A program made the translations under genes and the position numbers. This document shows, in pieces, positions 82-42,206 of a DNA stretch of 64,000 bases. Source of the DNA: a virus; the IMG/VR virus record IMGVR_UViG_3300045988_125651; one strand, 5' to 3'. Each line of letters begins with the position of its first letter. Within the stretch, counting starts at the first letter, position 1. The notes beneath the pieces are model-generated. The model made no database searches, had not been told where the DNA came from, and saw nothing but the letters and a program-made list of their open reading frames with translations.

Positions 82-313
82 TTATGCTTTGTGTAAGCTG
101 CTGCTAATAAACGAGTTACACCGTAAACGCGTACGTAAACAAGTTTATTTCACAACCTTCGGGTACACCAGTGTTTATCAGCTTTCTCGCGAATTTGGAC
201 GCTTTTTCGATTTGCAAGTTCTACCCTCGTTCTACCGCCATCAAGAAGTGTATTACCAAATACGTGATTGTTTTCCCGAAACATTATAAACATTTTAAAA
301 CAATTTGTGTACT

Positions 314-5879: not shown

Positions 5880-5918
5880 TGGGTATTGTCTAACCTATTC
5901 TAAAAGAAAGGATTTCTT

Positions 5919-6428: not shown

Positions 6429-6466
6429 GGCATCCTTTCTCTTAGAAACTTAAAAACATTACGACT

Positions 6467-6736
6467 ATGAATTTTGTTGTTGAAATTACAGAGGATAAGT
6501 TCTCCGAACTCACCGAGAACGCCGAGAAAATGCTTCGCTATGGAGGCAAGGTCATGTCCTGTCTCGACTCTATCAAGCGTGAGCGATATGGCGAGCGCAG
6601 CCCTATGCCCGACTATCGCAGCTCCGACTATCGCAACCGCGACCAATATCACCCCCGTCCCGATTATCGCGAACGTGAAGACTTCGCAGACAACCGCAGA
6701 CAACGTGATCGTCGCGACTACGATAACGATTACTAA
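6467..6736 (+). CDS. Hypothetical protein with R/D/Y-rich tail
   Basis: Structured N-terminal half, then DYR-type repeats (PDYRSSDYRNRDQYHPRPDYRERED). Confidence 0.45.
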   Translation: MNFVVEITEDKFSELTENAEKMLRYGGKVMSCLDSIKRERYGERSPMPDYRSSDYRNRDQYHPRPDYREREDFADNRRQRDRRDYDNDY

Positions 6737-6746
6737 TGTATAACTC

Positions 6747-6781
6747 GAGGAGAGTGCAGCCCTATAGCTGTTACTCTCCTC
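6747..6781 (+). terminator. Strong hairpin after the stop at 6736
   Basis: GAGGAGAGT / ACTCTCCTC 9-bp stem with an inner CAGC/GCTG stem, followed by TTAATCCTATTT. Confidence 0.5.
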
Positions 6782-6798
6782 TTAATCCTATTTCACAC

Positions 6799-7215
6799 AT
6801 GAAATCTCGTCAATCTTTTTCACAATACGACTACCGTCCTCCCGAAATGCTTGCCTATCTCCGTCACTACGGCTATCATTTCTCGCGCCGTATGCACGAC
6901 TTCGCTGTCTCTCGTATGCGTCGCGACAACAAGCCTATCACTCCTTGGACTAAGGAGAAGGTCGAGCAAGTTATCCACAAGTACGGCATAACTCTCGAAA
7001 ACGCCATTGCCTACGACCATGTCTATGTCTTCAATATGGCTCTTGCCGATTTCTACGGTTCTTCCATCACCGACGAGCGTGCTCTTGCTCTCTTTGTCAA
7101 GGATTACGTCGATGACGAAGATCAGCCCGACGGTTTTATCTTCAATCGTTTCTATGCCGATTGTGCCCTTTCCGGCACGCCTATCCCATGGGAAGATATT
7201 TTAGACCCCTCATAG
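6799..7215 (+). CDS. Hypothetical protein
   Basis: I chose the ATG at 6799 because the hairpin at 6747-6781 occupies the 5' part of track ORF 6736..7215. Confidence 0.5.
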   Translation: MKSRQSFSQYDYRPPEMLAYLRHYGYHFSRRMHDFAVSRMRRDNKPITPWTKEKVEQVIHKYGITLENAIAYDHVYVFNMALADFYGSSITDERALALFVKDYVDDEDQPDGFIFNRFYADCALSGTPIPWEDILDPS

Positions 7216-7218
7216 CCT

Positions 7219-7608
7219 ATGCGCTCGCAGCAAATTTACCTTCATTCCTACGATTGGACGGTGCAGATATTTTATAATGTCCCTCCTTCAAGGGTCGATA
7301 CTATCCGCAGACATCTTCAAGCTCTCGCCTGTCACTCGCGTCCTCTTGAAGATGCCTGTATTCTTGTCTCTCAATCTACCCCCGATACTGCTTTTACCTA
7401 TACCAACATTTCTCTTCACCGCACCCTCATCGTTCTCTGTCCCTCTTCTTCTCCCTCTCAATTTCTCAACACCCTCACCCACGAACTTCTCCACACCACA
7501 ACTCACATATCCGATTACTACAACATTCCTCTCAACACCGAATCTCCCTGTTATCTCCTTGGTTCTCTTGCCCAGGCTTCTTATTCTATAGCGCAATATT
7601 ATTTGTAA
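7219..7608 (+). CDS. Hypothetical protein with HExxH motif (possible small metallopeptidase)
   Basis: LTHELLHTTTH contains HELLH. It lies in a pyrimidine-rich tract where several frames are open, so the frame call is tentative. Confidence 0.3.
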   Translation: MRSQQIYLHSYDWTVQIFYNVPPSRVDTIRRHLQALACHSRPLEDACILVSQSTPDTAFTYTNISLHRTLIVLCPSSSPSQFLNTLTHELLHTTTHISDYYNIPLNTESPCYLLGSLAQASYSIAQYYL

Positions 7609-26666: not shown

Positions 26667-29600
26667 TTATTCTATCCTATCCAAATCTTCTACAGCCTCC
26701 TGCATCTTTCTATTTATCGCCTCATTCACCGCCTCAACAACGGCCTTATCTTTAGCTCTTTTCAGAATCCTGCGCTTGGCAGCAATGTATCTATCAGCAG
26801 CCTCATATATCTTCAGCTTTCTTCCGTCCTTGCTCTGCGAGAGCTTGAACTTAGTTGCCGCATTATGAATATTCTTAGCAGTATCTGGTGTATTCGTCTT
26901 CATCTGCTGCATATTGTATTTCAGCCGTTCAAGTTCGTCAGCGTAGTTATACCACTTGGATTTAGTCCTCTGCATGTCATTACCCTCCTTCGGAGTATAG
27001 TTGAACACTCTATAGAATGGAATAGTATTCGGGTCTACTTTATCCCATTCCTTATTAAAGCCTTCTGCAAAGCCTTTATCATCCTTGATGCCCGACACGA
27101 CACCCTTCGCAAACGACTTGCCTGTTTGATACATTCTACCAATCGTGGCACCAGTTCCACCAGTATAACCCTCGACGATATGCTGCAATCCATAAGGAGC
27201 AGTAAAGAAGTCTACAGCATCAGCCATCATACCACTACCTTTCAAGTCCTCGTTCGTGCTGTCGATACCGTTGAAAGTCTTGTTAGCCCACTTATTGATG
27301 GTCATGTACACATCGTTCGTGCTGTCATAGGCGCGCTTCCATCTTGGAGCCTTGTCAAGATAATCTTTGTCACGGTATATTGGTCTGCCCGTCCAATCTC
27401 TGTTGAAAGCAAGTTCAAATTCTGGCTTCGCTATTGTCGGAATCACAGAGAGAGCAACATCTTCGCCCAACTCTTTTATTCCGCTCGATGGAGAATGATG
27501 TCCCAGGAAGTCTGAGGCAGGAACAAGCTGTGCCATCTGTCCGATAATGTCCCATCCTATTTGAACGTCACTCTTTAGGCTTTCGTCAACGACATACCCG
27601 GCTGCAATATCACCCAAGCCATAGAATGCTCTAAGCTCTATACCCATAGGTATAGTCTTGAACTTACCGCCTCCCCAATATATACATATATTATTGCGAC
27701 GTTTCCATTCTGGCAATTCCGCGTATGGATTCTTTACGCCATTGCGTTTTTTCTCGTCCTCTCTACCAATACGCCATAGATTGAATAATGCAACAGCAAG
27801 ACTCAGTCCAAAAGGCATTGCGCCAAAAGCAATCGCGGTTGTTTTTGTATTATTGTAAAGATTCTTGGCAAAAAGGTTTGCACCCTGCACACCTGCATTA
27901 TAGAACATAGTGTGATTCTTCATCCAACTGTTGAACCATCCTACAGGCTTTCTGAATGCAGTATCCGTCTTTCCATCATACCCTGTCTTCAAGCTCTTTA
28001 TTGCATCGCCCGAACCATGACGGTTGAAGTTTGAAGAAACCTCCTTAGCGTCATAGATACTCTTGCCTATGCTTCTACCGCGCTTTCTTGATACACAGTA
28101 AGTGGAGTAGCGAGCTACGTTTTCTACAACCTCATTCGCCAATTCGATGAACGCACCGCCTTCTTTCAGCTTTTTCATAAGCCATCGGTCGCCTTCTTTA
28201 TTTCCTGTCTTTACAAGGTTCTCATATTCTTTTATTATGTCCTCGTATTTCTTTAACGAAACAAAACCTGTCTCACCGCCATTGTCCATGAACTCCTTAA
28301 ACCAACGTTCTTTCTGATTGTTTGCATCCAAGCGTCCATCCTTGTAGCGTCTGAACATTCCAAGATAACCGCCATCAAAGCCGCCATCCTTTCGTCTTAC
28401 CATAGACCCCCAGTTTTTCGCATACTCCATGCAGAAGTCCCAAGTATAACCCATTCCTTCCTTTACCACCAAGTTTGCCGACCCAGCGGTCAGGTCTCGT
28501 ACAAGGTTTGAAGACACAAAGTCCGGATTAAGCGAAGTGTTCAACTGGGCGCAATATCTGTTCAGTTTTGCCGACTGTTCCGTTGCCCAATGTTGTGTGC
28601 CCGAGTCTCTGAGCAATCCATTAATAGCTTGTGCTGCTCTTGGGTTTCCCTGGCAAACAAATCTGCGCACTCTGCCGTTCACGTATACATTAACTATATG
28701 TTGGTTCATGTCGCTGCTGCGCTCAAACTTATAGCCAATGTCGCTTTTCCTTCTCGCTATCTTTGCCTCGCCATGAGCTTGCTTTGCCTTCATGGTGTCC
28801 TCAAAGGTGTTCAATATATCGTTGATCTGCTCTTGGGTTGAGTTTTCGGGAATGTTCGGCATTACTTCCTCCCATACCTCATTACCGTCAACGGTATGCT
28901 TCTCCACCCAAGGCTGAATCTCCACGAATATTCTATCCTTAGCGTCCCCCTTCTCATAGGCTTCCACAAAGCGCATGAAGTGTTGTTTCTCCACATTCTT
29001 GCCACCGTTCAATATGGACGATTTTGCCAAGGCTGATATTTGTGCCAATACGTTCACGTCACTAAGGCTCTCACGTCCTCTTGCCTTTTCAATCACAGAA
29101 CCTATGTAGTTCTTTGTGTCGCTACCCGATATGTAGCCGTACACATCTTCGGCAACTGTATCGTCGAATTTTCTTAATGGAACATACCAGTCGAACATTT
29201 CTTTCAAATGGTCTCTTCCGTTTTTATCCATGAATCCGTTGGCATACACTTGGTCTATAGTGAAGTCGGTAGCTTTCTTCTTGGCATCCCAAAAGCTCTT
29301 CACCAAGTCTGCCCCAAGCTGGCTTTCCGTGCTCATCACCTCGTCTATAACGTTGGCATCGTCATACTCCTCGCCTTTCTTCACGTCATAGATTCCGTGC
29401 ATACCCGAATAGTCATGCTCCTCAGCCTTGAAGTCCTTGTCCAAGTTCTGCACAATCCACTCGTCCATCTGACGATAATACTCTCTCAAGTCTATCTGTC
29501 CAGAGTCAAGCTTCTGTCTAAGGTCGCTTCTCTCGCCCTTCCAAGCAGTCTCCAAAGCATCAATACTATCGGATTCTTCACTCTTCACTTTTCGTTCTTC

Positions 29601-32600
29601 CCTTATCTTGTCTCTTACGAATAGTACTCTGTTTCTCTCCAAACCATGCTTCTTTATAAAGTATAGATTGGCGTTTCGTGTCTGCTCTGCTCCGTCCTTG
29701 CCGGGCATTGCCGACACCACTTTCTTGAAGGCGTCACCTAATGGCTCGGTGTATTCTCTGTCGTATCTCTCGCACATCTGCATAACCATACTGCCCATTC
29801 TGTTATGGCATTGCAATGGATTGAAGGCCGAAGGAATATCTGCATAAGCATCCTTCACACCCGAGATTATCTGCATGGCTTCCTGCAAAGACTGCATATC
29901 GTCCACGGTACTCTCCTTGAATGCGTACCATTTTGTGCTCAATCGTCTGTTGTATTCCTCAATTTTCGATGCTGTCATTGGCGAGGTTCTATAGTGTACA
30001 TGTCCGTCTGTAGCCTCGTCAAAATCTTTCTTGTTAAGGTCCAACAGCCCATGCTTCTTGCCGTTGTTGTCGTACATCATACCGTTCTCTTCTACAACGG
30101 ATAATGTCTTCTCATGCTCTATCTTCCACCTCACAGCCTCAGCTCTCATCTTCCACAGCGGACTGTCTCCATGCTTCTGCACGTTCTTCGCAAGCCACAG
30201 CATATACTTCACGTCCTTCACGTTAGGCGAAACTCTGTAGCCTATCTCATGCAGGGCATCTGTCACCTTATTCTTAATGTAGTTCCAGAATCCAGGCTCA
30301 CCCTTTCCGTCCTCTGCGCTCTTGGCGATAAACTCCTCAATAGCGTCATAGAATCCAAGGTGATTCATGTTCATCTTTTCCTTCACATAAGCTCTCAGCT
30401 CAGCATTGATAGGGTTATCCAAGTCCATCCAAAGACTTCTCATGTAGTCATTGAATTTATCTCCAAGCAGCCCTCTCATGCCCTTGTGTCCTACGGTCTC
30501 GTGCCATACGGTTTTCTCCGCGGTATACGAGTCATGGATATTAGGCATATACAGATGCACTTCGCCCGTCTTCTCGTCATACCAGCCAGTCACCTGCTTG
30601 CCGTTCTCTATGTCCTTGCGCACCTTCGGGTTCTCAATCTCCTCAACCGAGTTCACCATCTTCACCTTGCCTCCAGTTCTCTTGGCAACCTTCTCCACGG
30701 TCTTGATGATACGCTCGCTCACAGCATTCGAAGTCCCCGAAGTCTTCTCAGGTGTTACAACACCATCGCCTTCTTTTCTAAAGAAAGTCTCCCCATCTGT
30801 TAAATTTTTACTCTCATCAAGCAATTTTTTGCCCGAATCGTAGGATTTCTCAACTCCTTGCAGTAACTTTGCGGTTGAAATATAACCGTTGGTTGTACTG
30901 TTCAAAGGGAGACTGTCGGATTCGTTCGCTTTCTCGGAACCTTCCGACGTTATATTTTTAGAGTTGCTTGGTGTCGTGTCCAAAGGGGAACTGTCGGGTA
31001 ACACCGCTGTGCCAGGAGCGTCAGGCAGCTCTATCTTATTATCAATAGAGTTGTTTGATGCATCCGAAGGTGGTCTGTCGGGATTTTCTCGCTTTCCAGG
31101 GGAGTCAAGCAGCTCTATTTTTGTTACCTCATAGCTGTGAGGTTTGTTTTCTTCTCCTCCTCTGAACTCTTGCATAGTAGTCTTCACACGGTATATCTTA
31201 CCGTCCATCTCTACTGCGCCATAAAGTCTATGTACAAGGATATTGTTTCCATATCCAAGCTCGGCTTTTCTTTTTCCGGTTTCGTCCTTTACGTTATAAT
31301 CCGCGTGAATCTCAGCCTCGATGCTCTCATGGATAACATCTGTAAGTTTGGGAAGTACCGAAAGATGAATGTCAAGATTCTCACTTTTACGAACAGCACT
31401 TTCTGAAAGATATTTTTCAACAGCCCTTTTGCTGATTGTATAAGATGTACCATCGCGCATAATAGGCATTTCTGTCTTTCCCGTTGTTACAAGGTTTTCT
31501 TTTGCCCATTCTCTGGCATTTTTTAAAGAAGTTTCAATATTGTCACCAAAGGGAGATTTCTCAACCTCTACCACCTTCACCTTCTCCTTATTCAGATTAG
31601 GCATAACGATTCCTTTCTCCTCCACAGCTCTGTCTCTCACAGCGTCAAAGTGTTCCTTGCTGTCTGAGAAGGTATCGCCAAGCTCCATGCGGTAATGGGC
31701 ATTTGCCTTTCCATACACCTCTGCAGCATGCTCCATTCTGTACATCACACCCTTGCCATCGTTCTGTTTCTTCAAGTATCGTTGCATTTCCTCCTCGGTC
31801 ATGCCAGCCAACTTGCAAGTCAGTTTCTTTAGCTCCGCAATCACAGCCTGGCTTGTCTCGTCTCTCGTATAACGCTCATACTCCTCAAATCTCTCGTATG
31901 TACCCGAAAGAATACTCTTTCTCTGCTCAGCGTTATATTCACCCAAGTCAAACATAATAGAGTAATCGTTGCGGTCTCCTCTCACATGCACATTAATACC
32001 ATGCTCGTTCAAGTTCACCGTCACGTCTTTCAGTTCCTTCAAGTCCTTGGCTGTCTGCTTGCTCTTCTTCTGCATTATCGTATTGGTGTCGATAATGCGG
32101 TCAGGCATTTCTATATCGCGCAAATCCTCAAAGAAATCCTCTATCTTATCGTAGTGACCACCCAAGTTCACTTTCTCTACGCTGCCAGCCTTGGCTCGCA
32201 TAGCCTCGTTGCTTATCTTGTCCACTACTACCACACGGCATACTACATTGGTACCTGCCTGTTTGAACACGATGTCTGGCAACTCCACCTCGGCACGCAT
32301 TACGGCTGTCTTCTCACCATTAATCCACTTCTCAAACTTCTTGTCCGTTGAACCTCTCGGTATAATAGCTACCACACGACCGCCTTCCTCCAAGTGTTTG
32401 AATGCCTTACCCAAGTGGGCAATGGCTGTCGCTCCTGCCGTACCAAACGGTGGGTTCATTACTACAACATCATGCTTGTTGCTGATGTCGTAGTTCTCGA
32501 ATATGGTGTTCACGAACTTTCTACCCAGTCCACCTGCCTTCAACTGCAACTTGGCAAACAGACTCTGACTTGGTTCTATTGCCACCATCTGATTGCCCTT

Positions 32601-35600
32601 TGGAGCATATCGTGCTATCGCTCCATGTCCGGCACTCGGCTCCATTACGGTGTCACCCTCGCCCATGTTCGCCCATTCCATCATCTTATAGCCTAATGGT
32701 TCAGGTGTTGGGAAGTAGTCTACACCCTCTCTGTTGCGGGAGTTCAACTTCTGGTTCGAGTAGTAGTCAAGCACTGCATTGTCAAATCCGTCCGTGCTTT
32801 GGTCTTTAGGCGCGTCAAATTCCTTGCCTCCTACTCCTTGTTGATCGATAGGCACCACTCCGCTATGCTCCAATATACCGTTGGCGAAACTGTCTCTCAA
32901 ACTTCTTGCCTGACTTCCAAGCGCAAGGTTCTCAGTTGTCGATACCTGGTTGTTGAACTTCTGTCCGAACAGCATCATTTCTGAGTTCAGTCCCAATATC
33001 GGGTACTCAAATATGGCGTTGCTCTTGTTACCGATACGGTAGGTTCGTCCCTCTATCTGCAAGGCTGTGATAGGACTCTGAGGCAGAGCCAATGTTATGC
33101 ACACTCGCTGATGCTCGCCCGTCTTGTCATGCAGGGAGATTCCCTCCTTGCCGCTCGCCTCCTGTATCACGATGATGTTCTTGCCGCTGTTGTCGTCGTT
33201 GAAGATGTCCACAGCCTTGTCCTTCACCTTAGAGCTTTCCTTTCCGCTGAAGAACAGCACATTGTCCTTGCCGAACACCTTGGCTATCTGCTCACGAGGC
33301 ATACTGTAGTCAAGGGTCTGCTCCCACTTCAGCAAGTCGGCATACTTCTTTCTGAAATCTCTTACAGCCTGCGCAGCCTCCTTCTTATCCTTGCCTTCGC
33401 TCATTATCGAAACCAAGTGGTTGGCTTGCTCCAACATCAAGGCGAACGGCGGCTTCAATGGTTCCTTAGTCTCCACGCGACGATGGAATATCACAACCTT
33501 GCGTCCTGCATCCAAATGGGCCTTTATGCGCTCGATAATGTTAGCCACCTTCATAGTCTCAAACAGCGCGCTACCATAATTGTAGTCGCCAATCGTCCTG
33601 CGGTAAGCGTCTGCCAACACTCCGTGTCCTCTTACGGCATCCTGCACAGCTTGGTTGAACTGCTCCGCATGGTCGGGCGATACCGTCGGGAAGTCTCTTG
33701 AATAGTCATACGGACTGTCTATAATGCGTCCGCTCATGGTTCCCAACGTGTCTTGCAGATAGTCAGAGAAGGCTATCTCCTGCTTGGCTACTGCCTCTGG
33801 GTTGCTTGTGCTCTGCTCCAGTCTGTTGTAACGGAATTTGTATGCCGAACCAAAGTTGTCCAGATAGAACTGTGTGCGTCCGCTTATTCTTCCGCCCTTC
33901 TCTACTTCGGGATACTTGAAAATGTAACCCTCCACATAGTCAAGATTCTCGCGAGTGTTGAATGGTGTGGCCGAAAGGAAGATGGTCTTTGTGTCCTTCC
34001 ATTCAGCTTTTGCCTGTGCCTTAAGCTTTGGCTCCACAATGCTATTGTAGTGTCTTACGGCGTTTACATATTCAGCATGTATCTTGCCAAGCTTCGGGTA
34101 GTCGGCATATTCTCTAAAGCTTTGTATATCCTTCGGCAACATTCTTCTTATGGCATAGGCCACGTCACTTGCTGTTGCGCTCGGATGGCTCACCTTATAC
34201 TCTTTGCGTATACGCTCCACCTCCTTCTCGCGCTCAGCGTCAAACTGTTCGCCAAGACTCTTCATCTTCTGATAGTCCTTGTTCGTCTCCTGCAATCTCA
34301 GGAAGCAATGACGCTCGTCACGGTTCGTCACCATGTAGTGCTGTATACTGCGTGCCGTGTCCGCGCCCTTCTTGTTCTCCATGATACGGTGGCTCTCGTC
34401 GTATATCACAGCGTCCCAGTTCTCTTCCAACAGCTTCTTGTTCACTCCGAAGTTGGCGAATGTGGTGATCACCACGCCCTCGCCGCTTTCCGTCGTAGCC
34501 GTTGTGCCACGCTCCTTGGCTATGCTGTCAAGGTCGCGAATCTCCATGTTCAGGTTGCGTCCGTCCTTTATCCAGTCGCTCACCTTCTTCTGGCTCGGGG
34601 TCACAATGAGTATTCGTCCCTTGCCCTGCTTCACAAGTCGCTTGGCAATGCCAAGTCCCGTAAACGTCTTGCCCGTCCCCGTGCCATTGGTGAACATGTA
34701 GCCCTTGCCGTAGGCGTGCTCTCTGTCCGCGTGCTCATTGCCGAAGAACTGTGTCTCTGCTTTCAGCACGTCCTCCTGCTGTTGGGGCAGAAGATATGGT
34801 AGGGTTTCCTCGATATTCTTCTTGTCGCCTATCTTCACCTTGATAGGCTCGGCATCCATCTGTCTCTGATACTTATCGTTCAGAGGCTCTGAAAGCTTGT
34901 TTCTCAGCTCCTCGTTTCCGTGGATGCCTGCCCATTCGCCGATGGTATGGGTCTCACCGTCCATCTGGTAAGGAGTGTTCCAATAGTCTTCGATGAATCT
35001 GTCAACATCATCATCGCTGAGGCCTATCATCTTCAACTCCTCGCCTTCCTCGGCGCGCATAGCTGCCTTCCATTCGTTGAATTTGTAGATGCCTTCCTTT
35101 ATTTTCAGCACAGCTCCATTAAGGTGCATCTTGAACAACTCGGGGAGCATTTCTATCTGCTCGGGCGAAAGATTCAGCTTCTTGAAGGGAGTCAAGGCTA
35201 TCTTAACATATCCTTGCCCTGCCTTCTTCCATCTTTCCCAAAAGTCCTTTTTCTTCTGCTCGTATTCGGCGCGCTCCTGCTTTAGTCGCTCAGATGTACT
35301 ATTTGGGAAATGAGTTCCTTGCTTGGCTGCAGGCTTCCGTCCTGCATTCGGGTCAAGAGGTCCATTGCCGCCGCCTTGTCCTCCTCGCTTAGGTACATTT
35401 CCCTCATTGCCAGCTCCACCGCCTCCTCGGGTGTCAGTACTTCCGGCAGATACGGCATCCATTCCGGGTGTATTTCCTTCACCTTTGTCAACGCGCGGTT
35501 TTCCAGTAGATACAGGAGTGTCGTTCTCACCGCCCGTTCCGCTCTCTCGCTCTCCGGGTGTAGTTCGTTCGCTGTCTGTTCTATCCACTGGTCCATCAGG

Positions 35601-38600
35601 TCCTCCGCCTTTTCGTCCTCGTCCCAATCCCAATTCTTGGCTGCCTCCAGTATTGGGAACATCCAGCTGTGTTCCGTCTTTTGTTCCGCTATTATCGGGA
35701 ACATTCTCATGTCTACTTCTAACATCGTTCCAAATTTTAAAGTAAGAAATTGCGTTAATTATATTGCCCTTGTCGCCACGCAAGTATGCGAGTGCGGCAG
35801 GTATCAACTCTCTGTTCTCCTTAGAAGTCAGCTCGTTTATCTCTGTTTCCGTAAGAGGATTCTTCGACGACACGGCTTCTCGTTCCTCCAAGTCCATCTG
35901 TTCCCAAGGCTTGTTTACCTTCTCGGCTTCTGCCTTGCCTACTTCCTTGCCAAGAATCTTTCCTAACTCTCGACCGATAATTCTGCGTCGCTCCACTAAG
36001 CCGATACCGTTTCCTCTCAGCTTAGTTTCCATCGCCTGTTTCATCTTCTCTGTAGCACGCTTAATATCAGAAGCGTCGCCGCTCTCCTTGGCAGCAGTCA
36101 GTTCCTTACGCGCCTTCTGTATCTGCTCGTCCTTGAACATTTCTGCAGTATGCGCCAACCAAGCCAACGGATTTGTCTTTGGGGGTTCCTCACCCTCAAC
36201 CTTAGTATCGGATTTTTCACTTTTCTCTTTTCCCTTTTCACTCTTCAAGGGGTTCGCTCCCTTAGCCCAGTCTGCCAGCACCTTGTCTGCCACATCGCTA
36301 CCCCTAATCTCACCCTCAGTCAAAGGATGGTCTTTCTTGTAGTTCTCCGCAGCTTTCACTATCGGATTAAGCGTATTCTCTTCTTTCTTAGGAAGGATTG
36401 AAAGCGGTTCTTTATTCAGTTCTTCTTTTTCTGTATATTCGTTGTATCTCTCGCCTTCCTCTATTACGGATTTAATAATACGTGCCGCATCTGCCACATT
36501 ATCCAATGTAATTTGTGGCAGCTTTGCAATAGGGTCGTTTTCTTTAATCTGGCTTATATTACGGTAGTCATTATCCAATGCCTTCAACTGGGCATACCAA
36601 GGGCTGTTCTTGTCGGCATATATCCAGCCGTCTCCGTTTTCACCGTAAGAAAGATGGACTCCTTCAAGTCCTGCATCTTTCAATGCAGAATCTAAGGCAC
36701 TCTCGATAGTCTTAATAACTTCCGTTAAAGGTTTTATGAGTGCCTTATTAACATTATAGCTTTTATCGTTTTTCTTTGTATTCTTACAAATTGACAAATA
36801 AGACGAAAGATAGCCATGGCCAAGTGGGCTCGCAAGGATAGCTTCCACCAAATCTTTCTGTGCGTTCTTTATACGCTTCTTATCGCCACTCTCAACGGCT
36901 TCTTTCAAAGCCTTAGCAACAGGCGAAACCTGTTTCAAACCTTGGTCGCGAGACTCTATGTAAGCCTTGAATTTATTTTGAGGCGCAAGGTCTCCTTCTA
37001 TTTCTTTCGTTCTTGGAAGTTCACCTTCTCTTTCCTCTCCCTTCGGCTTAGTCGGCTCCACAGGCTCCACAGGCTCAGTAAGGGCCAGTGAGGCCTCGTG
37101 AGGCTTATCACTTTTCTCTTCCTCAGCCTTGTCTACTTCTCGCTGTCCTTCTGTTGGTTCGTCTCCTCCTGGTGCTTGCGGTTCAGTTCCCTCAGAGCTG
37201 CCAGCATCGCCATTTCCTTCTTTGCTTGAATGTCTTGTTTCATAGTCTTTCCAGTTTCTAAGTTTCAAAAATTCCTTTATAAACTCTTCATTCGTAGGTC
37301 TCTCGCCGAACATTTCCATCTGGTTGGCATCTGCATAAGGAGCAGCATTTCTGTTATACGCCATCATCAGCTCACGGAAGTCCTCAGCCTTACCCTCCAG
37401 AGCAAGAGCAATAGCCTGCGAGATAGGGTCAAATCTGTCAGCTGCGTTCTCGCCAAACATAGCAGGAGTGCGCAAGTATGCGTCCACACCGCTTCCGCCT
37501 TGACGAGCTTCGTACAGCAACTGCACTGCCTGGTCTATCTCCTTCATCAGAGCATAGTCGCCAAGTTTCATATTGTCCGTCACAGCACGGATGCCGTTCA
37601 GAGCCTTGGTTTTCAGCATAGCGTCAGCGCCCATCATGCGGATGGTGTTCTCCGAGAACACACTGCCCAATAGCAGGTTCTTCACGAAGTCCTTGCCTGC
37701 TGCCGAAAGCTTGTCCTCGCCCTCACGCAATCCCGCTATCTCGTTCAGACCAATCACGCCCTTATCAATTAAACGCTTTAGCAACGAGTTTATTGCAGTA
37801 GGATTGTTAAAGAATGCGTCAAGACTACCGCTTCCCTCTATCTCTGATATAATAGTGCCTATCTCGTCTGCAGAAAGCTTCTTCGAGTTCGCCACTGCCT
37901 GCTGAGTATTGCCCTGCGATTTCTTCTCGTTCTTGTTGAACTTGGCAAAGGTTGCCGTGTCATACTTCATCGGCTCGTCACTCACAAGCACAAGGCGCGG
38001 ATGCTTTATACCACTCTGCTCAATCTGCTCTGCGGTGAAGCCGTAATTCTCTGCATTCTCCTTCAATGCTTCAAGATAAGCACTGTCGGTACCGTTCTTT
38101 GCTGCCTTCTGTCCCGCCATCGTTCTGCCGTTACCGTCAACAACAATGCCGTCAGATGTCACAACCGGAACCTGGTCTACTGCCTGTCCGTCATACTTCA
38201 TGGCTATCATATCCGTTACCATCTGAGCCTGCTTGTCATTCTCATAGTCACGGTCATTGATAGTCCTGCCTTCTTCGTTCACGGGGAAACCCTCACTCTT
38301 CTTATATCCGTCGTTGGCATTATGCGAAGGTGTCAGACTGTCTGCTTCAACAATCTCATAGTGTCCTCTTAGCTTGCTTCCGTCAGCCAATGTACGTGTA
38401 CGCTTGTTGCCCACAATACGCTTACCGCTTTCAAACTTCTCACGAACAGCGCCTAAATTACCTGCTTCACTTACCGAACCTTCTTCACCTACACTACCTA
38501 CCTTCTCCATTCCAGCCTTAACCTTATTCGCGGTCATTACCTTCTTGATATTGGTATATAGCTCCAGCTCTGCTTTGGCGGCATCAACTGCCTTCGCCTT

Positions 38601-41600
38601 CTGAGCCTCAGCTTCCTTGGCGTCGTTCAAGTCGCCCGTGTAATCCACCTTTATCATTTCGGCTTCCTTCAGCATTTTCTCGGCTCTCTTTATCTGTCCG
38701 TCTACAGCAGCTTCTGCGTTCTCGCCAAACTGCGAAGACATCCACTCCGCTCCATGTTCGGGTGTCATCTGCGAGTAGTCAGCAGTCTCACGGCCTTTCG
38801 TGTCCTTCATCATCGGCACAGGTGAGCCATCGGCAAATGTTAAAGTCTCGTTACTTCCATTGCCATTATCGGATGGATTCTTTTTTTCTCCTTCCCCTAT
38901 AGGCTTTACATCTTCAACTCCAGGCGCCGACGCGCCCTCCTTCGGTGTTACAACACTCTCAGTCTTAGTATCGGATTCTTCACTTTTCTCTTTTCCCTTT
39001 TCACTTTCAGCGTAAGCCCCTGAGTTCAACTCCTCCAACTTCGTTTGATAGGCCTTGGCATAGTCCTCCGTCTTTTCCACATGGTCAAGCTGCACGTCCT
39101 TCTTGCTCACGAAGTCCATCTCCTTTGTATTCGGGTCAAGCACGCTAAGCATGTCGCCAACGCTTTCTCTCGCTCTACCCTCATTATCAAAGGCAACATC
39201 GCCCGCTCCAACAATAAGCAGTCTGCCATTGTTGTCCTTCACGAACAACATCTGGCCGCCCTCTTGCTTCTCACCGTTCAGCCCGCCCTTGTAGCTCCAT
39301 TGCTCCACATGCTTCTGCACGGTCTCAGCAATCTTCTGTTCAGTTCCGCGATACATGCCCACAGCCTTAGCCTTGGTGTTGATATAGTCGGCAAAAGGTA
39401 CAAGCTGTTCCTGCGTCAGTCCCGAGTTTATCAGCTCCATGTATATCTGAGGTTCCGAGAGACCTTCCTTTGTTAGTCTCTCATACTCCTGCTTCAACAC
39501 ATCGTTACTTTCCAAGGCTGCATTAAACGCCTTTTCGGCATTATTCATGTTGTTCAGCACCTCAGCCACAGCCTCGTTGTTAGGATTCTCCGTGCCAAGG
39601 TTATTTTCCTCAACCACGTCCTTGCCCTCTGTCTGCGACTGGTCGGGATGCAACGTTCCTTCCGGGAACTGCTCTCCCTCATAAGCCTTTCTCAGAGCCA
39701 CGCAAGCGTTCTGTTCTTCCTCGCTGCGCTTCAACGGGTCTTTGTCCATAGCTGCCTTCAACTGTTCAGCAGTAAAGCCAAACGTCTCAGCTACAGTCTC
39801 CAATGTTTCTTGTGCCGCCTTCTCGTCCTTTATCTGAGCTGCGCCATAGGCATTACTCAAACGTTGGTTTTCCTTTTTCGCCCCAAGATTGTATTTGATT
39901 GAAACGTATTCGTCGGCTGTCTTATAGCGGTTCTTTGAGAGCAACTCTCCATAAAGGCTATACTCACCCACATACGCTCCTCTTTCGTCACGCTCTATCG
40001 CTATATGGTCCATCATCGGACGTGCCGAAGGAACAGTTCCCATAACCAAAGCAGAGAACTTAGCCTTTGTGTCCCAAGGGATAGTTTCATCTGCCATTAT
40101 CTCGTCATAGGCAGTCTTCACAAACTCAGTGTCTGTGTCCTTATACGACTCCTCGCCTTTCCCTTTGGCTGCGGTCTTCTTAGTTCGCATCGCCCAAGAT
40201 GTCAGACTCTCTTTTCTCGTCAGCGGATTGTCGTGTACGTCATATCCGTAGAGCGTCTCTTCGCGCTTTGGCGCCTTGTCGCTTCCGAACAGCTGCTCTT
40301 TCTCCTCATTGGTAAAAACATATCCACCAAAGGTCGCTCTCTGTCCGTCAGATGTCATAAGGTTTTTAATATTTCTCGCCACCATATCAAGGTAGCCTTC
40401 CTTTTTGCCATCATTCACCTGACGCTTAGGCAGTCTTGCGTGTGTCAGCTTCAAGGCTACAACATTGGCACAAGCCTCAAGTGTGCCTTCAACGCTCCAG
40501 AAGTCGGTATCATGTCCCTCTATCATCTTGGCGACATTGCCACCGACGTGCATACCCCAACCTTCCATCGCTATTTGGAACACCTTGGCAGGGATGCGCT
40601 TCACGCCACTTACATTATAGATTCCTGCACCTACAGCACCGCCAATGCCACCCATAGTAGCCCAGCTTGCGCCCTCAGAAAGACCGCCCATAGTCATAAG
40701 CTTCACGGTATTGCCAATAGAGGTATCATCACCCGTTGAGTAATTCTGAACAGCAGCATTCGTCGAACCATAAAGCACACCCGTTACACCTTGACTTACG
40801 GCTCCAGTACCAACCATTCGACCTATGCGCCCTGCAAGACTCGTGTTAGCAATCCTTGCTGCCTGTGCCACACCATTGCCGAAAGCCTTGCCTGCGACCC
40901 ATGCACCGCCCTTGCCAAGCACACCAAATACTGGGCCATCAGCACCAAAGCCTAATGTGCCTCGTGCCACTCTCGCTCCCATACCCGGCTTAACATAAGG
41001 ATTTTCCCCGTTATCGGTCATAGCCATTCCTTGCTGAGCATACTGTCTCTGCTTCTTCGACATCATACCCATCGACAAGATAGTGCCTATCATCGAGTCG
41101 TTGACACCACGGATGATATATTCTGCCGTACTCTTAGGCATATTACGGCTCAATTCGCTCTTCTCAAACTCCTCAGCTATCTTTGCTTGCAAGCCAGGAG
41201 CTATATAATTCTTTACATAATCCTCTGGGTCGATACCTAACGAAGCTGCCTTTTCTGCTATTTCCTTCTGCATCTTCGGGTCGGAGAACAACCCAGCCAT
41301 GTCTTTCTCGGCATTCTTGCTGAGCTGATTCATTAGCTTGTCAGGATCAAGGGCTTCATTGTAAGCCTTACCTGCTGCCATATATGCAAATGGAGAGGCC
41401 TTGCTCAAAGCATCTTCTGCTGCAACACCTTTAACTGTCGCATCCTTAAACATCTTTTGGATACTATTGTTTATATATCCGCCAAGCTGTTTGTCAACAA
41501 GCTGTCTGCTGCTTTCTTCCAACTCATCCTCCAACTGCCCCCTTGTCTTCACAATATTGTTGTTCACGTCCTCGTTCCCAAGGTCAAAGGCTGGAGCATT

Positions 41601-42206
41601 CCTTCGTCTTATCTCACCCTCAGCATTTCTACCAGCCTCTTGTCCAGCCTGTTCCATTCTACGCTCCAGTGACTTCTGTGCTCTTCTCACACCGCCTACC
41701 ATCTGTTTTACAGCACCCGGCTTTGTATAGTCTATAGGCATCTGCTCCTCGTCGCGCTTTCTAATCATATCAGCAGCGCGCAAGCCCTTCACTAGCTCGC
41801 TTTCCTTACCCGTAGTGCCACCGTTCCAATCATCCAATGTCACAGCATTCCTCTTCGGTGCTGAAACATTCTCAGATGTCGTAGTGTTCTCATGTGTTAC
41901 AACACCACCGCCCCACTTCTCTTGCGCCACACTCTGTTGCGCGCGTCCAAGTGCCGAGCTATTGGGTTTCCCCTTTCCTCTTGTTATCGTTCTTCCCGTA
42001 AACAGATGAGCACCAAAGTCACCAACACGACTCGCATCCTTTACGCTCACATCGCCTCTTCGCCCTGTCTTTCGGTCTATTACCTCCATTCGAGCACCAG
42101 GGAATGCTTTTGCAAATCCCATCGGGTCCTTGTCATACGCTGTCTTGTCTACCGTATGCCTGTTACCTTTCGCATCCTTGAAATAATAATATCTATTGTC
42201 TGCCAT
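26667..42206 (-). CDS. Giant multi-domain polyvalent protein (5,179 aa)
   Basis: A single uninterrupted ORF. It contains ParB-like, SF2 helicase, N6-adenine-type methyltransferase and HExxH motifs, plus Gly-rich and TM segments (listed as sub-features below). Confidence 0.85.
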   Translation of the reverse strand: MADNRYYYFKDAKGNRHTVDKTAYDKDPMGFAKAFPGARMEVIDRKTGRRGDVSVKDASRVGDFGAHLFTGRTITRGKGKPNSSALGRAQQSVAQEKWGGGVVTHENTTTSENVSAPKRNAVTLDDWNGGTTGKESELVKGLRAADMIRKRDEEQMPIDYTKPGAVKQMVGGVRRAQKSLERRMEQAGQEAGRNAEGEIRRRNAPAFDLGNEDVNNNIVKTRGQLEDELEESSRQLVDKQLGGYINNSIQKMFKDATVKGVAAEDALSKASPFAYMAAGKAYNEALDPDKLMNQLSKNAEKDMAGLFSDPKMQKEIAEKAASLGIDPEDYVKNYIAPGLQAKIAEEFEKSELSRNMPKSTAEYIIRGVNDSMIGTILSMGMMSKKQRQYAQQGMAMTDNGENPYVKPGMGARVARGTLGFGADGPVFGVLGKGGAWVAGKAFGNGVAQAARIANTSLAGRIGRMVGTGAVSQGVTGVLYGSTNAAVQNYSTGDDTSIGNTVKLMTMGGLSEGASWATMGGIGGAVGAGIYNVSGVKRIPAKVFQIAMEGWGMHVGGNVAKMIEGHDTDFWSVEGTLEACANVVALKLTHARLPKRQVNDGKKEGYLDMVARNIKNLMTSDGQRATFGGYVFTNEEKEQLFGSDKAPKREETLYGYDVHDNPLTRKESLTSWAMRTKKTAAKGKGEESYKDTDTEFVKTAYDEIMADETIPWDTKAKFSALVMGTVPSARPMMDHIAIERDERGAYVGEYSLYGELLSKNRYKTADEYVSIKYNLGAKKENQRLSNAYGAAQIKDEKAAQETLETVAETFGFTAEQLKAAMDKDPLKRSEEEQNACVALRKAYEGEQFPEGTLHPDQSQTEGKDVVEENNLGTENPNNEAVAEVLNNMNNAEKAFNAALESNDVLKQEYERLTKEGLSEPQIYMELINSGLTQEQLVPFADYINTKAKAVGMYRGTEQKIAETVQKHVEQWSYKGGLNGEKQEGGQMLFVKDNNGRLLIVGAGDVAFDNEGRARESVGDMLSVLDPNTKEMDFVSKKDVQLDHVEKTEDYAKAYQTKLEELNSGAYAESEKGKEKSEESDTKTESVVTPKEGASAPGVEDVKPIGEGEKKNPSDNGNGSNETLTFADGSPVPMMKDTKGRETADYSQMTPEHGAEWMSSQFGENAEAAVDGQIKRAEKMLKEAEMIKVDYTGDLNDAKEAEAQKAKAVDAAKAELELYTNIKKVMTANKVKAGMEKVGSVGEEGSVSEAGNLGAVREKFESGKRIVGNKRTRTLADGSKLRGHYEIVEADSLTPSHNANDGYKKSEGFPVNEEGRTINDRDYENDKQAQMVTDMIAMKYDGQAVDQVPVVTSDGIVVDGNGRTMAGQKAAKNGTDSAYLEALKENAENYGFTAEQIEQSGIKHPRLVLVSDEPMKYDTATFAKFNKNEKKSQGNTQQAVANSKKLSADEIGTIISEIEGSGSLDAFFNNPTAINSLLKRLIDKGVIGLNEIAGLREGEDKLSAAGKDFVKNLLLGSVFSENTIRMMGADAMLKTKALNGIRAVTDNMKLGDYALMKEIDQAVQLLYEARQGGSGVDAYLRTPAMFGENAADRFDPISQAIALALEGKAEDFRELMMAYNRNAAPYADANQMEMFGERPTNEEFIKEFLKLRNWKDYETRHSSKEGNGDAGSSEGTEPQAPGGDEPTEGQREVDKAEEEKSDKPHEASLALTEPVEPVEPTKPKGEEREGELPRTKEIEGDLAPQNKFKAYIESRDQGLKQVSPVAKALKEAVESGDKKRIKNAQKDLVEAILASPLGHGYLSSYLSICKNTKKNDKSYNVNKALIKPLTEVIKTIESALDSALKDAGLEGVHLSYGENGDGWIYADKNSPWYAQLKALDNDYRNISQIKENDPIAKLPQITLDNVADAARIIKSVIEEGERYNEYTEKEELNKEPLSILPKKEENTLNPIVKAAENYKKDHPLTEGEIRGSDVADKVLADWAKGANPLKSEKGKEKSEKSDTKVEGEEPPKTNPLAWLAHTAEMFKDEQIQKARKELTAAKESGDASDIKRATEKMKQAMETKLRGNGIGLVERRRIIGRELGKILGKEVGKAEAEKVNKPWEQMDLEEREAVSSKNPLTETEINELTSKENRELIPAALAYLRGDKGNIINAISYFKIWNDVRSRHENVPDNSGTKDGTQLDVPNTGGSQELGLGRGRKGGGPDGPVDRTDSERTTPGERESGTGGENDTPVSTGKPRVDKGEGNTPGMDAVSAGSTDTRGGGGAGNEGNVPKRGGQGGGNGPLDPNAGRKPAAKQGTHFPNSTSERLKQERAEYEQKKKDFWERWKKAGQGYVKIALTPFKKLNLSPEQIEMLPELFKMHLNGAVLKIKEGIYKFNEWKAAMRAEEGEELKMIGLSDDDVDRFIEDYWNTPYQMDGETHTIGEWAGIHGNEELRNKLSEPLNDKYQRQMDAEPIKVKIGDKKNIEETLPYLLPQQQEDVLKAETQFFGNEHADREHAYGKGYMFTNGTGTGKTFTGLGIAKRLVKQGKGRILIVTPSQKKVSDWIKDGRNLNMEIRDLDSIAKERGTTATTESGEGVVITTFANFGVNKKLLEENWDAVIYDESHRIMENKKGADTARSIQHYMVTNRDERHCFLRLQETNKDYQKMKSLGEQFDAEREKEVERIRKEYKVSHPSATASDVAYAIRRMLPKDIQSFREYADYPKLGKIHAEYVNAVRHYNSIVEPKLKAQAKAEWKDTKTIFLSATPFNTRENLDYVEGYIFKYPEVEKGGRISGRTQFYLDNFGSAYKFRYNRLEQSTSNPEAVAKQEIAFSDYLQDTLGTMSGRIIDSPYDYSRDFPTVSPDHAEQFNQAVQDAVRGHGVLADAYRRTIGDYNYGSALFETMKVANIIERIKAHLDAGRKVVIFHRRVETKEPLKPPFALMLEQANHLVSIMSEGKDKKEAAQAVRDFRKKYADLLKWEQTLDYSMPREQIAKVFGKDNVLFFSGKESSKVKDKAVDIFNDDNSGKNIIVIQEASGKEGISLHDKTGEHQRVCITLALPQSPITALQIEGRTYRIGNKSNAIFEYPILGLNSEMMLFGQKFNNQVSTTENLALGSQARSLRDSFANGILEHSGVVPIDQQGVGGKEFDAPKDQSTDGFDNAVLDYYSNQKLNSRNREGVDYFPTPEPLGYKMMEWANMGEGDTVMEPSAGHGAIARYAPKGNQMVAIEPSQSLFAKLQLKAGGLGRKFVNTIFENYDISNKHDVVVMNPPFGTAGATAIAHLGKAFKHLEEGGRVVAIIPRGSTDKKFEKWINGEKTAVMRAEVELPDIVFKQAGTNVVCRVVVVDKISNEAMRAKAGSVEKVNLGGHYDKIEDFFEDLRDIEMPDRIIDTNTIMQKKSKQTAKDLKELKDVTVNLNEHGINVHVRGDRNDYSIMFDLGEYNAEQRKSILSGTYERFEEYERYTRDETSQAVIAELKKLTCKLAGMTEEEMQRYLKKQNDGKGVMYRMEHAAEVYGKANAHYRMELGDTFSDSKEHFDAVRDRAVEEKGIVMPNLNKEKVKVVEVEKSPFGDNIETSLKNAREWAKENLVTTGKTEMPIMRDGTSYTISKRAVEKYLSESAVRKSENLDIHLSVLPKLTDVIHESIEAEIHADYNVKDETGKRKAELGYGNNILVHRLYGAVEMDGKIYRVKTTMQEFRGGEENKPHSYEVTKIELLDSPGKRENPDRPPSDASNNSIDNKIELPDAPGTAVLPDSSPLDTTPSNSKNITSEGSEKANESDSLPLNSTTNGYISTAKLLQGVEKSYDSGKKLLDESKNLTDGETFFRKEGDGVVTPEKTSGTSNAVSERIIKTVEKVAKRTGGKVKMVNSVEEIENPKVRKDIENGKQVTGWYDEKTGEVHLYMPNIHDSYTAEKTVWHETVGHKGMRGLLGDKFNDYMRSLWMDLDNPINAELRAYVKEKMNMNHLGFYDAIEEFIAKSAEDGKGEPGFWNYIKNKVTDALHEIGYRVSPNVKDVKYMLWLAKNVQKHGDSPLWKMRAEAVRWKIEHEKTLSVVEENGMMYDNNGKKHGLLDLNKKDFDEATDGHVHYRTSPMTASKIEEYNRRLSTKWYAFKESTVDDMQSLQEAMQIISGVKDAYADIPSAFNPLQCHNRMGSMVMQMCERYDREYTEPLGDAFKKVVSAMPGKDGAEQTRNANLYFIKKHGLERNRVLFVRDKIREERKVKSEESDSIDALETAWKGERSDLRQKLDSGQIDLREYYRQMDEWIVQNLDKDFKAEEHDYSGMHGIYDVKKGEEYDDANVIDEVMSTESQLGADLVKSFWDAKKKATDFTIDQVYANGFMDKNGRDHLKEMFDWYVPLRKFDDTVAEDVYGYISGSDTKNYIGSVIEKARGRESLSDVNVLAQISALAKSSILNGGKNVEKQHFMRFVEAYEKGDAKDRIFVEIQPWVEKHTVDGNEVWEEVMPNIPENSTQEQINDILNTFEDTMKAKQAHGEAKIARRKSDIGYKFERSSDMNQHIVNVYVNGRVRRFVCQGNPRAAQAINGLLRDSGTQHWATEQSAKLNRYCAQLNTSLNPDFVSSNLVRDLTAGSANLVVKEGMGYTWDFCMEYAKNWGSMVRRKDGGFDGGYLGMFRRYKDGRLDANNQKERWFKEFMDNGGETGFVSLKKYEDIIKEYENLVKTGNKEGDRWLMKKLKEGGAFIELANEVVENVARYSTYCVSRKRGRSIGKSIYDAKEVSSNFNRHGSGDAIKSLKTGYDGKTDTAFRKPVGWFNSWMKNHTMFYNAGVQGANLFAKNLYNNTKTTAIAFGAMPFGLSLAVALFNLWRIGREDEKKRNGVKNPYAELPEWKRRNNICIYWGGGKFKTIPMGIELRAFYGLGDIAAGYVVDESLKSDVQIGWDIIGQMAQLVPASDFLGHHSPSSGIKELGEDVALSVIPTIAKPEFELAFNRDWTGRPIYRDKDYLDKAPRWKRAYDSTNDVYMTINKWANKTFNGIDSTNEDLKGSGMMADAVDFFTAPYGLQHIVEGYTGGTGATIGRMYQTGKSFAKGVVSGIKDDKGFAEGFNKEWDKVDPNTIPFYRVFNYTPKEGNDMQRTKSKWYNYADELERLKYNMQQMKTNTPDTAKNIHNAATKFKLSQSKDGRKLKIYEAADRYIAAKRRILKRAKDKAVVEAVNEAINRKMQEAVEDLDRIE
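27770..27845 (-). other. TM helix in the C-terminal part of the giant protein
   Basis: TTAIAFGAMPFGLSLAVALFNLWRIG. Confidence 0.6.
30486..30503 (-). other. Zincin HExxH motif of the giant protein
   Basis: WHETVGHKG (codons CAC GAG ACC GTA GGA CAC). Confidence 0.55.
32215..32725 (-). other. N6-adenine-type DNA methyltransferase domain of the giant protein
   Basis: VMEPSAGHGAI (SAM-binding motif I) and VVMNPPFG (motif IV; NPPF codons at 32445-32456). Confidence 0.75.
32990..34760 (-). other. SF2 (SNF2/DExH-like) helicase domain of the giant protein
   Basis: FTNGTGTGKTFTG (Walker A), VIYDESHRI (DExH) and QIEGRTYRIGN (motif VI). Confidence 0.75.
35282..35725 (-). CDS. Candidate overlapping gene in the +1 frame of the giant ORF (147 aa)
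   Basis: ATG-initiated ORF with a globular-looking acidic helical translation. It overlaps a Gly/Arg/Asp-rich linker of the host frame. The local T-poor composition could also explain the open frame. Confidence 0.3.
   Translation of the reverse strand: MLEVDMRMFPIIAEQKTEHSWMFPILEAAKNWDWDEDEKAEDLMDQWIEQTANELHPESERAERAVRTTLLYLLENRALTKVKEIHPEWMPYLPEVLTPEEAVELAMREMYLSEEDKAAAMDLLTRMQDGSLQPSKELISQIVHLSD
36201..36243. repeat. Copy A of a 42-bp direct repeat inside the giant ORF
   Basis: CTTAGTATCGGATTTTTCACTTTTCTCTTTTCCCTTTTCACT. It encodes SEKGKEKSEKSDTK. Confidence 0.85.
37985..38375 (-). other. ParB/Srx-like nuclease-fold segment of the giant protein
   Basis: GHYEIVEADSLTPSHNANDG ... VVDGNGRTMAG resembles the ParB DGxxR core. 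Confidence 0.5.
38964..39005. repeat. Copy B of the 42-bp direct repeat inside the giant ORF
   Basis: Identical to copy A except for one T/C difference. It lies 2,763 bp (921 codons) from copy A. Confidence 0.85.
40600..40990 (-). other. Gly-rich hydrophobic (glycine-zipper-like) segment of the giant protein
   Basis: GFGADGPVFGVLGKGGAWVAGKAFGNG ... MGGIGGAVGAGIYNVSG. Confidence 0.5.

Follow-up and report, generated by a model that had tools for sequence, protein, structure and literature searches.

A conserved reading frame nested within a giant polyvalent-protein gene of a temperate Bacteroidota phage

A 147-codon frame inside a giant phage gene

The stretch of DNA analysed here (the window, 64,000 nucleotides (nt) of the virus record IMGVR_UViG_3300045988_125651) carries on its minus strand an open reading frame (ORF) for a protein of 5,179 amino acids (aa), at 26667..42206, and wholly inside it on the same strand a second, ATG-initiated ORF of 147 aa, at 35282..35725. 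According to the ORF listing the small ORF begins 6,481 nt into the giant one (42206-35725 = 6481 = 3 x 2160 + 1) and is therefore read in frame +1, after 2,160 host codons. The overlap comprises 444 bases, over which the host reading is a Gly/Arg/Asp/Thr-rich stretch. An original prediction made from the letters of the window had described an ATG-initiated ORF of 147 codons at this distance and in this frame; the translation quoted there matches the ORF listing, and the quoted Gly/Arg/Asp/Thr-rich host reading agrees with the host-frame translation. On the opposite strand two frames are open over the same segment (35310..35966, 218 aa; 35323..35745, 140 aa).

The same prediction had cautioned that base composition might keep the frame open, i.e. 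that a purine-rich, T-poor linker is free of stops in several frames and that the +1 ORF is no gene. In the window, the open run in frame +1 covers 158 codons and is the longest in the giant gene (next longest 65, mean 13.6). When the host codons of the segment were permuted, frame +1 was open in 0.065% of the trials; the fraction rose to 8.3% when synonymous codons were drawn anew for an unchanged host peptide. The caveat is thus fair for a single sequence, in which two antisense frames are open as well, and comparative data were needed. In the converse test, 20,000 resamplings of the codons of the small gene for an unchanged protein never left the host frame open and gave it ten stops on average.

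The giant host gene combines many conflict domains with the DdrB-ParB and LPD38 markers (Table 1) and thereby belongs to the phage-type large polyvalent proteins, as delimited by the marker list of PMC5512222. Other Pfam matches in the giant protein were to PF00271 (Helicase_C) and PF18798 (LPD3). Further genes of the window encode an integrase (305-1453, plus strand), an HNH endonuclease (4472-5410, minus strand), a terminase-like protein (12237-14375, minus strand) and a portal protein (16733-18724, minus strand), and the DNA is therefore that of a temperate tailed phage; the giant gene belongs to a temperate Bacteroidota phage. Among deposited phages no blastn match to the overlap region was obtained, and neither deposited phages nor PLSDB plasmids gave a tblastn match to the 147-aa protein.

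Many antisense ORFs of 100-350 aa run across the giant gene on the plus strand of the window (26865-41730). Public gene calls on two related contigs (L002 and L003) miss the giant ORF and list many antisense ORFs instead. Antisense ORFs of this kind are probably artefacts of the composition of the sense strand, which contains about 61% A+G.

Table 1. Position of the nested frame and of the features of the giant gene in the window (pI, isoelectric point; SF2, superfamily 2)
Feature	Position	Strand	Remarks
Nested small gene	35282..35725	-	ATG to TAA, 147 aa, pI 4.4, predicted nine-helix globule, undescribed family
Start codon ATG of the nested gene	35723..35725	-	spans host codons D or N (xAT) and V (Gtt); kept at every locus
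A/U-rich, structure-free stretch, putative internal initiation region	35726..35765	-	inside the coding sequence of the giant gene
Stop codon TAA of the nested gene	35282..35284	-	overlaps host codons L (cTA) and K (Aag), start of the next conserved host domain
Host-frame linker, ~149 codons, Gly/Arg/Asp/Thr/Ser-rich	35280..35727	-	open, sequence without constraint
Giant host gene, 5,179-aa phage-type large polyvalent protein	26667..42206	-	Pfam matches
DdrB-like ParB domain (aa 1275-1397)	38016..38384	-	PF18763, E = 1.5e-14
'Domain X' (aa ~2310-2490), directly downstream of the overlap, leads into the helicase	34737..35279	-	kept in all lineages including L049 and L047
SF2 helicase (ResIII/SNF2-type), N-terminal lobe (aa 2489-2623)	34338..34742	-	PF04851, E = 3.6e-11
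Methyltransferase-like segment, weak	32355..32588	-	PF05175, E = 0.0034, 17.5 bits against a Pfam cut-off of 23
LPD38 domain, marker of phage-type polyvalent proteins	27108..27731	-	PF18857, E = 1.1e-28

Conservation and selection in the two frames

Searching a protein collection with the 147-aa protein yielded 68 clusters, mostly of exactly 147 aa and with identities down to 56%; their alignment showed conservative replacements and indels of whole codons. For an analysis at the DNA level 41 related loci were fetched from IMG/VR viral contigs of 37-85 kb and from contigs of genomes or metagenome-assembled genomes (MAGs), the latter two labelled Leyella stercorea, Alistipes, Oscillospiraceae or unclassified bacterium. 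The small ORF is intact in these loci (147-152 aa, 42-99% aa identity to the window), except for L040, where it is cut at the contig end after 73 aa. All 41 loci have the identical ATG and the identical stop position, occupied by TAA or TAG in all lineages, and a host frame that is open across the ORF. Over the span there are no stops in the small and the host frame at any locus, 12-19 in the third sense frame and 0-4 in the antisense frames, which are inconsistently open. The comparison of relatives proposed in the original prediction thus revealed a conserved +1 ORF free of stops and frame-breaking indels.

Nested copies are also present in distant lineages (L049, L047 and L043), whose proteins are 25-30% identical to that of the window. 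The L049 copy (93% identical to the database protein P0080) begins after 2,118 codons of an ORF that exceeds 5,588 codons, and the two frames stand in the same relation as in the window. Around the copies of L047 (P0130) and L043 (P0070) the host frame is open over the entire contigs, and in L047 it continues into the domain X/helicase region of the giant. Apart from P0080 in viral contigs, searches from single distant proteins retrieved nothing from viral, genome or metagenome contigs.

At four loci the giant ORF is split or truncated downstream of the overlap and never within it (L001:1-9107; L002:27-7406; L020, host ORF end 11856; L034, end 11037). These could be real splits, pseudogenes or sequencing errors. 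Leyella stercorea strain An906 possesses two family members on short contigs (L036 and L041), 97% and 44% identical to the window protein and both nested in open host frames. The strain thus seems to harbour two distinct prophages of the group and provides the name of a cultivable host.

Pairwise variability at small-frame codon positions 1, 2 and 3 was 0.26, 0.22 and 0.39. Counted by host-frame position the same bases gave the inverted pattern 0.39/0.26/0.22, whereas the host flanks showed the normal one (downstream, in domain X, 0.32/0.25/0.52; upstream 0.35/0.29/0.52). Nei-Gojobori ratios of nonsynonymous to synonymous differences (pN/pS) ranged from 0.09 to 0.57 in the small frame, from 1.3 to 2.0 for the same bases in the host frame and from 0.075 to 0.59 in the downstream flank. 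Since ordinary estimators are biased for overlapping genes, differences were additionally classified jointly for both frames on 13 phylogenetically independent pairs, with the class in the other frame held fixed, an approach that follows the idea of PMC4316641. By this procedure dNN/dNS was 0.31 for the small frame (binomial p = 4e-27) and dNN/dSN was 1.02, not significant, for the host frame. The small frame therefore evolves as a protein under purifying selection, and the host frame over the overlap evolves as if only stop codons were forbidden.

Avoidance of host-frame stops distorts the codon usage of the small gene. In nested copies from nine lineages, T occupies 3-9% of the small-frame third positions, compared with 25% in the giant gene outside the overlap, and NNT codons before AA, AG or GA occur in 0 of about 50 cases. 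Among copies that stand free of a giant gene (described below), the recently freed L044 has 12% third-position T and NNT in 2/46 such contexts, L046 has 25% and 11/45, and L058 has 36% and 15/44. The poverty in T is absent from the free-standing homologues and is therefore a footprint of dual coding, not the cause of the open frame. Together with the persistence of ORF, ATG and stop in 41 relatives, the least similar at 42% identity, and in lineages of about 25% identity, the purifying selection on frame +1, a very confident fold prediction (see below) and the lack of conservation of the antisense frames, this leaves a composition artefact with a vanishingly small probability, even if 8.3% of synonymous resamplings keep the frame open. 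The caveat of the original prediction, fair for the window on its own, is refuted by the comparative data.

A further alternative is that the small frame alone is translated and that the 'giant gene' consists of two genes flanking it, the read-through in frame 0 never being made. The splits and truncations of the giant ORF in L001, L002, L020 and L034 would fit this idea, and so would a MAG contig (L042) whose small domain runs in frame into the downstream one. On the other hand, frame 0 is stop-free across the overlap at every nested locus, where about ten stops would be expected, and the borders of the overlap have no conserved start or stop in the host frame. The avoidance of NNT before AA, AG or GA is strict in nested copies and missing from free-standing ones, which only translation in frame 0 explains; ribosomes must accordingly cross the whole overlap in that frame. 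This argues against a giant made of two genes, a reading that we regard as highly unlikely, and equally against a shift into the small frame and back out of it.

Start signal, protein family and free-standing copies

The nested ATG is invariant; the host codon that covers it alternates between GAT and AAT without altering it. Fifty-nt windows centred at -30 to 0 of the ATG had mean minimum free energies of about -2.2 to -3.2 kcal/mol, as against -8.9 +/- 2.3 over +/-400 nt, and an AT fraction of about 0.70 compared with about 0.47 around. In each of the 12 lineages, L049 among them, these windows belong to the least structured ones (94th-99th percentile). Start signals of this kind, poor in structure and rich in A/U, are expected in Bacteroidota, where Shine-Dalgarno pairing plays a minor part. 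The nested gene thus appears to have a start signal of its own, composed of the invariant ATG and an unstructured A/U-rich pocket. The original prediction had pointed to a near-match to TAnnTTTG, the -7 promoter box of Bacteroidota, upstream of the ATG; this sequence, TAAAATTTG, is not an exact box and was rejected as a promoter of nested copies. In 14 nested loci, the 200 nt preceding the ATG contained no exact TAnnTTTG. Exact boxes lie at -41 and -35 of the free-standing copies in L046 and L058, respectively, and the L044 copy has none. From these features we infer that nested copies are translated by internal initiation on the giant mRNA, which would entail obligatory co-expression with the giant protein.

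The original prediction had also considered a +1 frameshift near codon 2160, which would end the N-terminal 2,160 aa with a 147-aa alternative tail. Both frames are on the same strand, and in the window the 33 nt that precede the ATG are open in frame +1; in some lineages a T_TTA_AAA heptamer, which we read as a possible slippery site, is located near the ATG. In most lineages, however, the small frame has a TAA 12 nt before the ATG, which leaves four codons for a shift, so that there is essentially no room for a frameshift-fusion product. The heptamer would cause a -1 and not a +1 shift and is absent from the window, L027, L047 and L049, and no shift motif is conserved across the lineages. 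The ATG, by contrast, does not vary, and most family members start there, including free-standing genes without an upstream ORF. A programmed frameshift is therefore very unlikely to account for the small ORF.

The heptamer (host TAT TTA AAA) is found 12-18 nt upstream of the nested ATG in L014 (9983-10007) and also in L003, L016, L021, L023, L037 and L039. A -1 slip at this site, with termination at the TAG in ATGTTAG and re-initiation at the ATG, was considered and set aside, as the heptamer is not conserved.

Profile searches against 1.84 billion cluster representatives identified 87 clusters at 50% identity, 46 of them with E <= 1e-10. Most members have 120-155 aa, align from residue 1 and begin at the same Met (ML[E/G]I); other motifs of the family are T.HSW, W, R.VR, LLE.EAI, P.V..P.EA and G.L.P. 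In the few longer matches the domain is found at the N-terminus of the respective protein, apart from weak C-terminal matches in P0140 and P0145, and none of them is an in-frame internal domain of a giant protein. The source database names the family 'hypothetical protein' only, and the carriers in it are mostly short contigs, a few reaching 40-70 kb. In P0140 (552 aa, a weak match) the conserved domain follows about 450 residues of Arg-rich low complexity; perhaps the gene call of a high-GC relative reads through out of frame here. P0147 (422 aa, E = 6e-4) was rejected as a family member because its match is too weak and its context is that of an ordinary chromosome.

The 147-aa protein is acidic, with a pI of 4.4 and 33 D+E versus 14 K+R residues. 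AlphaFold2 models based on an alignment of close relatives only had a predicted local distance difference test score (pLDDT) of 78.9. With 57 diverse sequences pLDDT rose to 95.1 and the predicted template modelling score to 0.89, and the model comprised nine helices without a low-confidence segment. These values agree with the acidic, helical product foreseen in the original prediction, and the structure prediction suggested there gave a confident fold. In Pfam the best match of the window protein was RTC4 (E = 0.09, below the cut-off), and the 41 family members searched gave five scattered single-member matches only, none of them to an LPD family. The modelling thus indicates that the nested ORF encodes a compact folded acidic protein of an undescribed family.

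Some family members occur outside a giant gene. The copy in L046 is an ordinary gene with 10 stops in its -1 frame, followed by genes for a type II methyltransferase and a type IIG restriction endonuclease-methyltransferase; neither tblastn with the giant protein nor a hidden Markov model of domain X gave a match in its flanks. In L058 (P0096, 353 aa) the copy is situated beside a type III restriction-modification (R-M) system and DndD- and DndH/HerA-like genes. The copy in L044 (region 5774-7382) lies about 240 nt past the last repeat of a type II array of clustered regularly interspaced short palindromic repeats (CRISPR; cas9-cas1-cas2; some 15 repeats, period ~65 nt). An identical copy is present in L044 and nine further contigs from different metagenomes, among them L045, L050, L051 and L052. 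The genes rimP and nusA follow downstream of the L044 copy, which is therefore located on a bacterial chromosome. Free-standing copies use the same ATG as the nested ones.

L044 and phage L049 are similar only over the small gene: the 92% identity between the free-standing and the nested copy sets in 3 nt ahead of the ATG and ends 15 nt behind the stop. Of the 31 differences, 7, 5 and 19 lie at small-frame codon positions 1, 2 and 3, with a pN/pS of 0.20 in the small frame and of 1.97 in the host-like frame, which in L044 already contains two stops. The L044 copy thus represents a natural excision of precisely the small ORF, which marks this ORF as an autonomous unit. The third reading put forward in the original prediction, that a former small gene was swallowed by the fusion of two large genes and that the +1 ORF persists by inertia, finds some support in the existence of free-standing homologues, since an independent gene could have pre-existed, and in the young, unconstrained appearance of the host-frame segment. 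Against a dead relic stand the lack of stops and frameshifts at 25-42% identity, the restriction of indels to whole codons, the dNN/dNS of 0.31 and the fact that the transfer between L049 and L044 runs from nested to free-standing. The small gene is still under selection and hence not a relic, a reading that we consider extremely improbable.

L054 (1-912) and L056, from two further samples, carry a 303-aa ORF in place of the array ahead of the same free-standing copy; L044 retains only the last ~140 nt of the 3' end of this ORF. Either the CRISPR-Cas locus or the ORF was thus inserted or deleted between strains. The 303-aa ORF of L054 is not similar to the giant protein. In the MAG contig L042 (204-1355) the small domain forms the N-terminus of a 342-aa ORF and continues in frame into a homologue of domain X; the host-like -1 frame closes after an open run of 229 codons. 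This is either a frame-switching rearrangement or an assembly indel.

Function, origin and comparison with known systems

Very probably, both readings of the overlap are in use and the nested +1 ORF is an independent gene, translated by internal initiation on the giant mRNA as the start region suggests. In frame 0 ribosomes cross the overlap, and the resulting disordered linker of ~149 residues connects the first ~2,160 aa, with their DdrB-like ParB domain, to the part containing domain X, the helicase, the methyltransferase-like segment and LPD38; selection on the linker reading does no more than bar stop codons. Frame +1, with its own conserved ATG and stop and under purifying selection, encodes the acidic protein of 147 aa with nine predicted helices. 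Nested copies, lacking a promoter of their own, would be initiated internally at the A/U-rich structure-free pocket, so that the small protein would be made together with the giant one. In the last and weakest step, the small protein would act in the same conflict over DNA between phage and host as the adjoining helicase-methyltransferase module, which resembles DarB of P1. The overprinted small gene, the first reading proposed in the original prediction, is supported by the purifying selection, the family-wide Met start, the confident fold and the free-standing copies.

Several points weigh against this interpretation or parts of it. The selection estimators are simplified and the sequences partly dependent, many of the contigs coming from one IMG/VR project. 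Internal initiation rests on sequence features only, and an internal promoter of a type outside our scan is possible. The L044 copy resides in a chromosome without a polyvalent gene, so a strict tie to the giant protein is not obligatory, and the L058 copy is divergently oriented and separated by a gap of 630 nt, which makes its association with R-M genes a loose one. A function finds no support in homology: the 147-aa protein had no match in Pfam, PHROGs, NCBIfam or PADLOC, and the PADLOC models likewise gave none for P0096, P0105 and P0080. Sequence and profile searches against PDB chains were negative, Foldseek searches of the PDB with both models gave no match (best E > 2), and a Foldseek search of BFVD with the earlier, lower-confidence model gave nothing with E < 1. 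The protein thus showed no likeness in fold or sequence to solved structures, DNA mimics and anti-CRISPRs included.

As regards function, the nested gene of the window is located just upstream of the SF2 helicase and the weak methyltransferase-like match. Polyvalent proteins have been proposed to be delivered with the DNA against host defence (PMC5512222). The Dar system of phage P1 consists of several proteins, and the others, DarB among them, are packaged only if Hdf and DarA are present (PMC12810830). By analogy, the small protein might be an accessory of a DarB-like module, for instance in packaging, as a chaperone or as a regulator, or else an anti-defence effector; we put this forward tentatively, as a possibility that falls somewhat short of even chances. 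On the chromosome, the copies may have been captured as decoys or left behind by mobile elements.

Two routes of origin can be compared. Read-through of a pre-existing gene would have required about ten host-frame stops to be removed; de novo birth in a permissive linker would have had an 8.3% chance of an open frame and must have yielded a very well-folded protein. The only transfer with a readable direction, from phage L049 to the chromosomal L044, went from nested to free-standing. A rather doubtful but conceivable scenario is de novo birth by overprinting in the linker, followed by repeated escape to free-standing genes at defence loci (type II and III R-M, CRISPR-Cas9), where the protein would serve as an anti-defence factor or as a decoy captured by the host against the injected helicase-methyltransferase.

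The family is widespread (87 clusters) in gut-type Bacteroidota phages. Because standard gene callers normally omit genes wholly nested on the same strand, it may go unannotated in complete phage genomes. If the interpretation holds, the nested gene adds a co-expressed, independently folding part to giant genes thought to be injected counter-defence weapons. Given this setting and the free-standing copies beside R-M and CRISPR-Cas loci, the 147-aa protein is a tangible candidate for an accessory protein of the Dar type or a new anti-defence factor. The overlap is an unusually clean case of dual coding in a large double-stranded DNA phage, a folded frame facing a frame constrained only to stay open; the cost of dual coding is visible as loss of T at third positions, with the free-standing copies as natural controls. 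Knock-outs of the nested gene that are synonymous in the host frame are possible, so its function is directly testable.

Genes nested in this way have precedents. In phage lambda, the Rz1 gene is contained entirely within Rz, in the +1 frame, and starts at a codon of its own; both proteins are produced. The Rz1 product, a lipoprotein of ~60 aa, has Rz itself as its partner, and both frames are constrained. The gene described here resembles Rz1 in that a larger gene of a double-stranded DNA phage encloses it completely, on the same strand and with the same +1 offset. Unlike in Rz/Rz1, the host protein has 5,179 aa, the nested product is predicted to be a soluble helical protein of 147 aa and the host reading is an unconstrained linker. 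Rz and Rz1 have no relation in sequence or fold to the 147-aa protein, and a partnership with the giant protein is hypothetical here.

Overprinting is also known from phiX174, with B in A and E in D. In overlaps generally, one frame tends to be ordered and conserved and the other disordered and fast-evolving, as set out in two reviews (PMC8227390, PMC3494269). The overlap in the window follows this pattern, two proteins being specified by one stretch of DNA. It differs from the overlaps of small viruses in its allocation of roles: order and conservation reside in the short nested ORF, and the disordered reading is part of the long host gene. Moreover, the genome exceeds 60 kb, which makes coding compression a weaker argument, and the family also exists in free-standing form.

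The giant protein resembles the polyvalent proteins treated in PMC5512222 in its DdrB-ParB domain, SF2 helicase, LPD3, LPD38 and weak methyltransferase-like match, and in its location near virion genes. A term search of that paper gave neither 'overlapping' nor 'frameshift', and its sole use of 'reading frame' concerns neighbouring ORFs; our literature search found no paper on an overlapping gene within a polyvalent-protein gene. The 147-aa protein itself matches none of the Pfam LPD families. The Dar system of P1 comprises the helicase-methyltransferase DarB, DdrB and the partners Hdf, DarA, DdrA and Ulx (PMC12810830), and as in that system a large protein of the helicase-methyltransferase type and a DdrB-like ParB domain are present. 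In P1, unlike here, the partners are encoded by separate, non-overlapping genes, and no homology of the 147-aa protein to any Dar protein was found; the analogy serves as a lead.

Small acidic anti-defence proteins include the DNA mimics Ocr and ArdA and the anti-CRISPRs. The 147-aa protein is similarly small, strongly acidic and phage-encoded, is placed inside a counter-defence gene and has free copies next to R-M and CRISPR-Cas loci; unlike those proteins it has no likeness in fold or sequence to any solved structure. Compared with all these systems, the overlap arrangement is of a known kind, as in Rz/Rz1 and phiX174; what is new is the giant polyvalent host gene, the undescribed family without a fold match and the clean natural controls.

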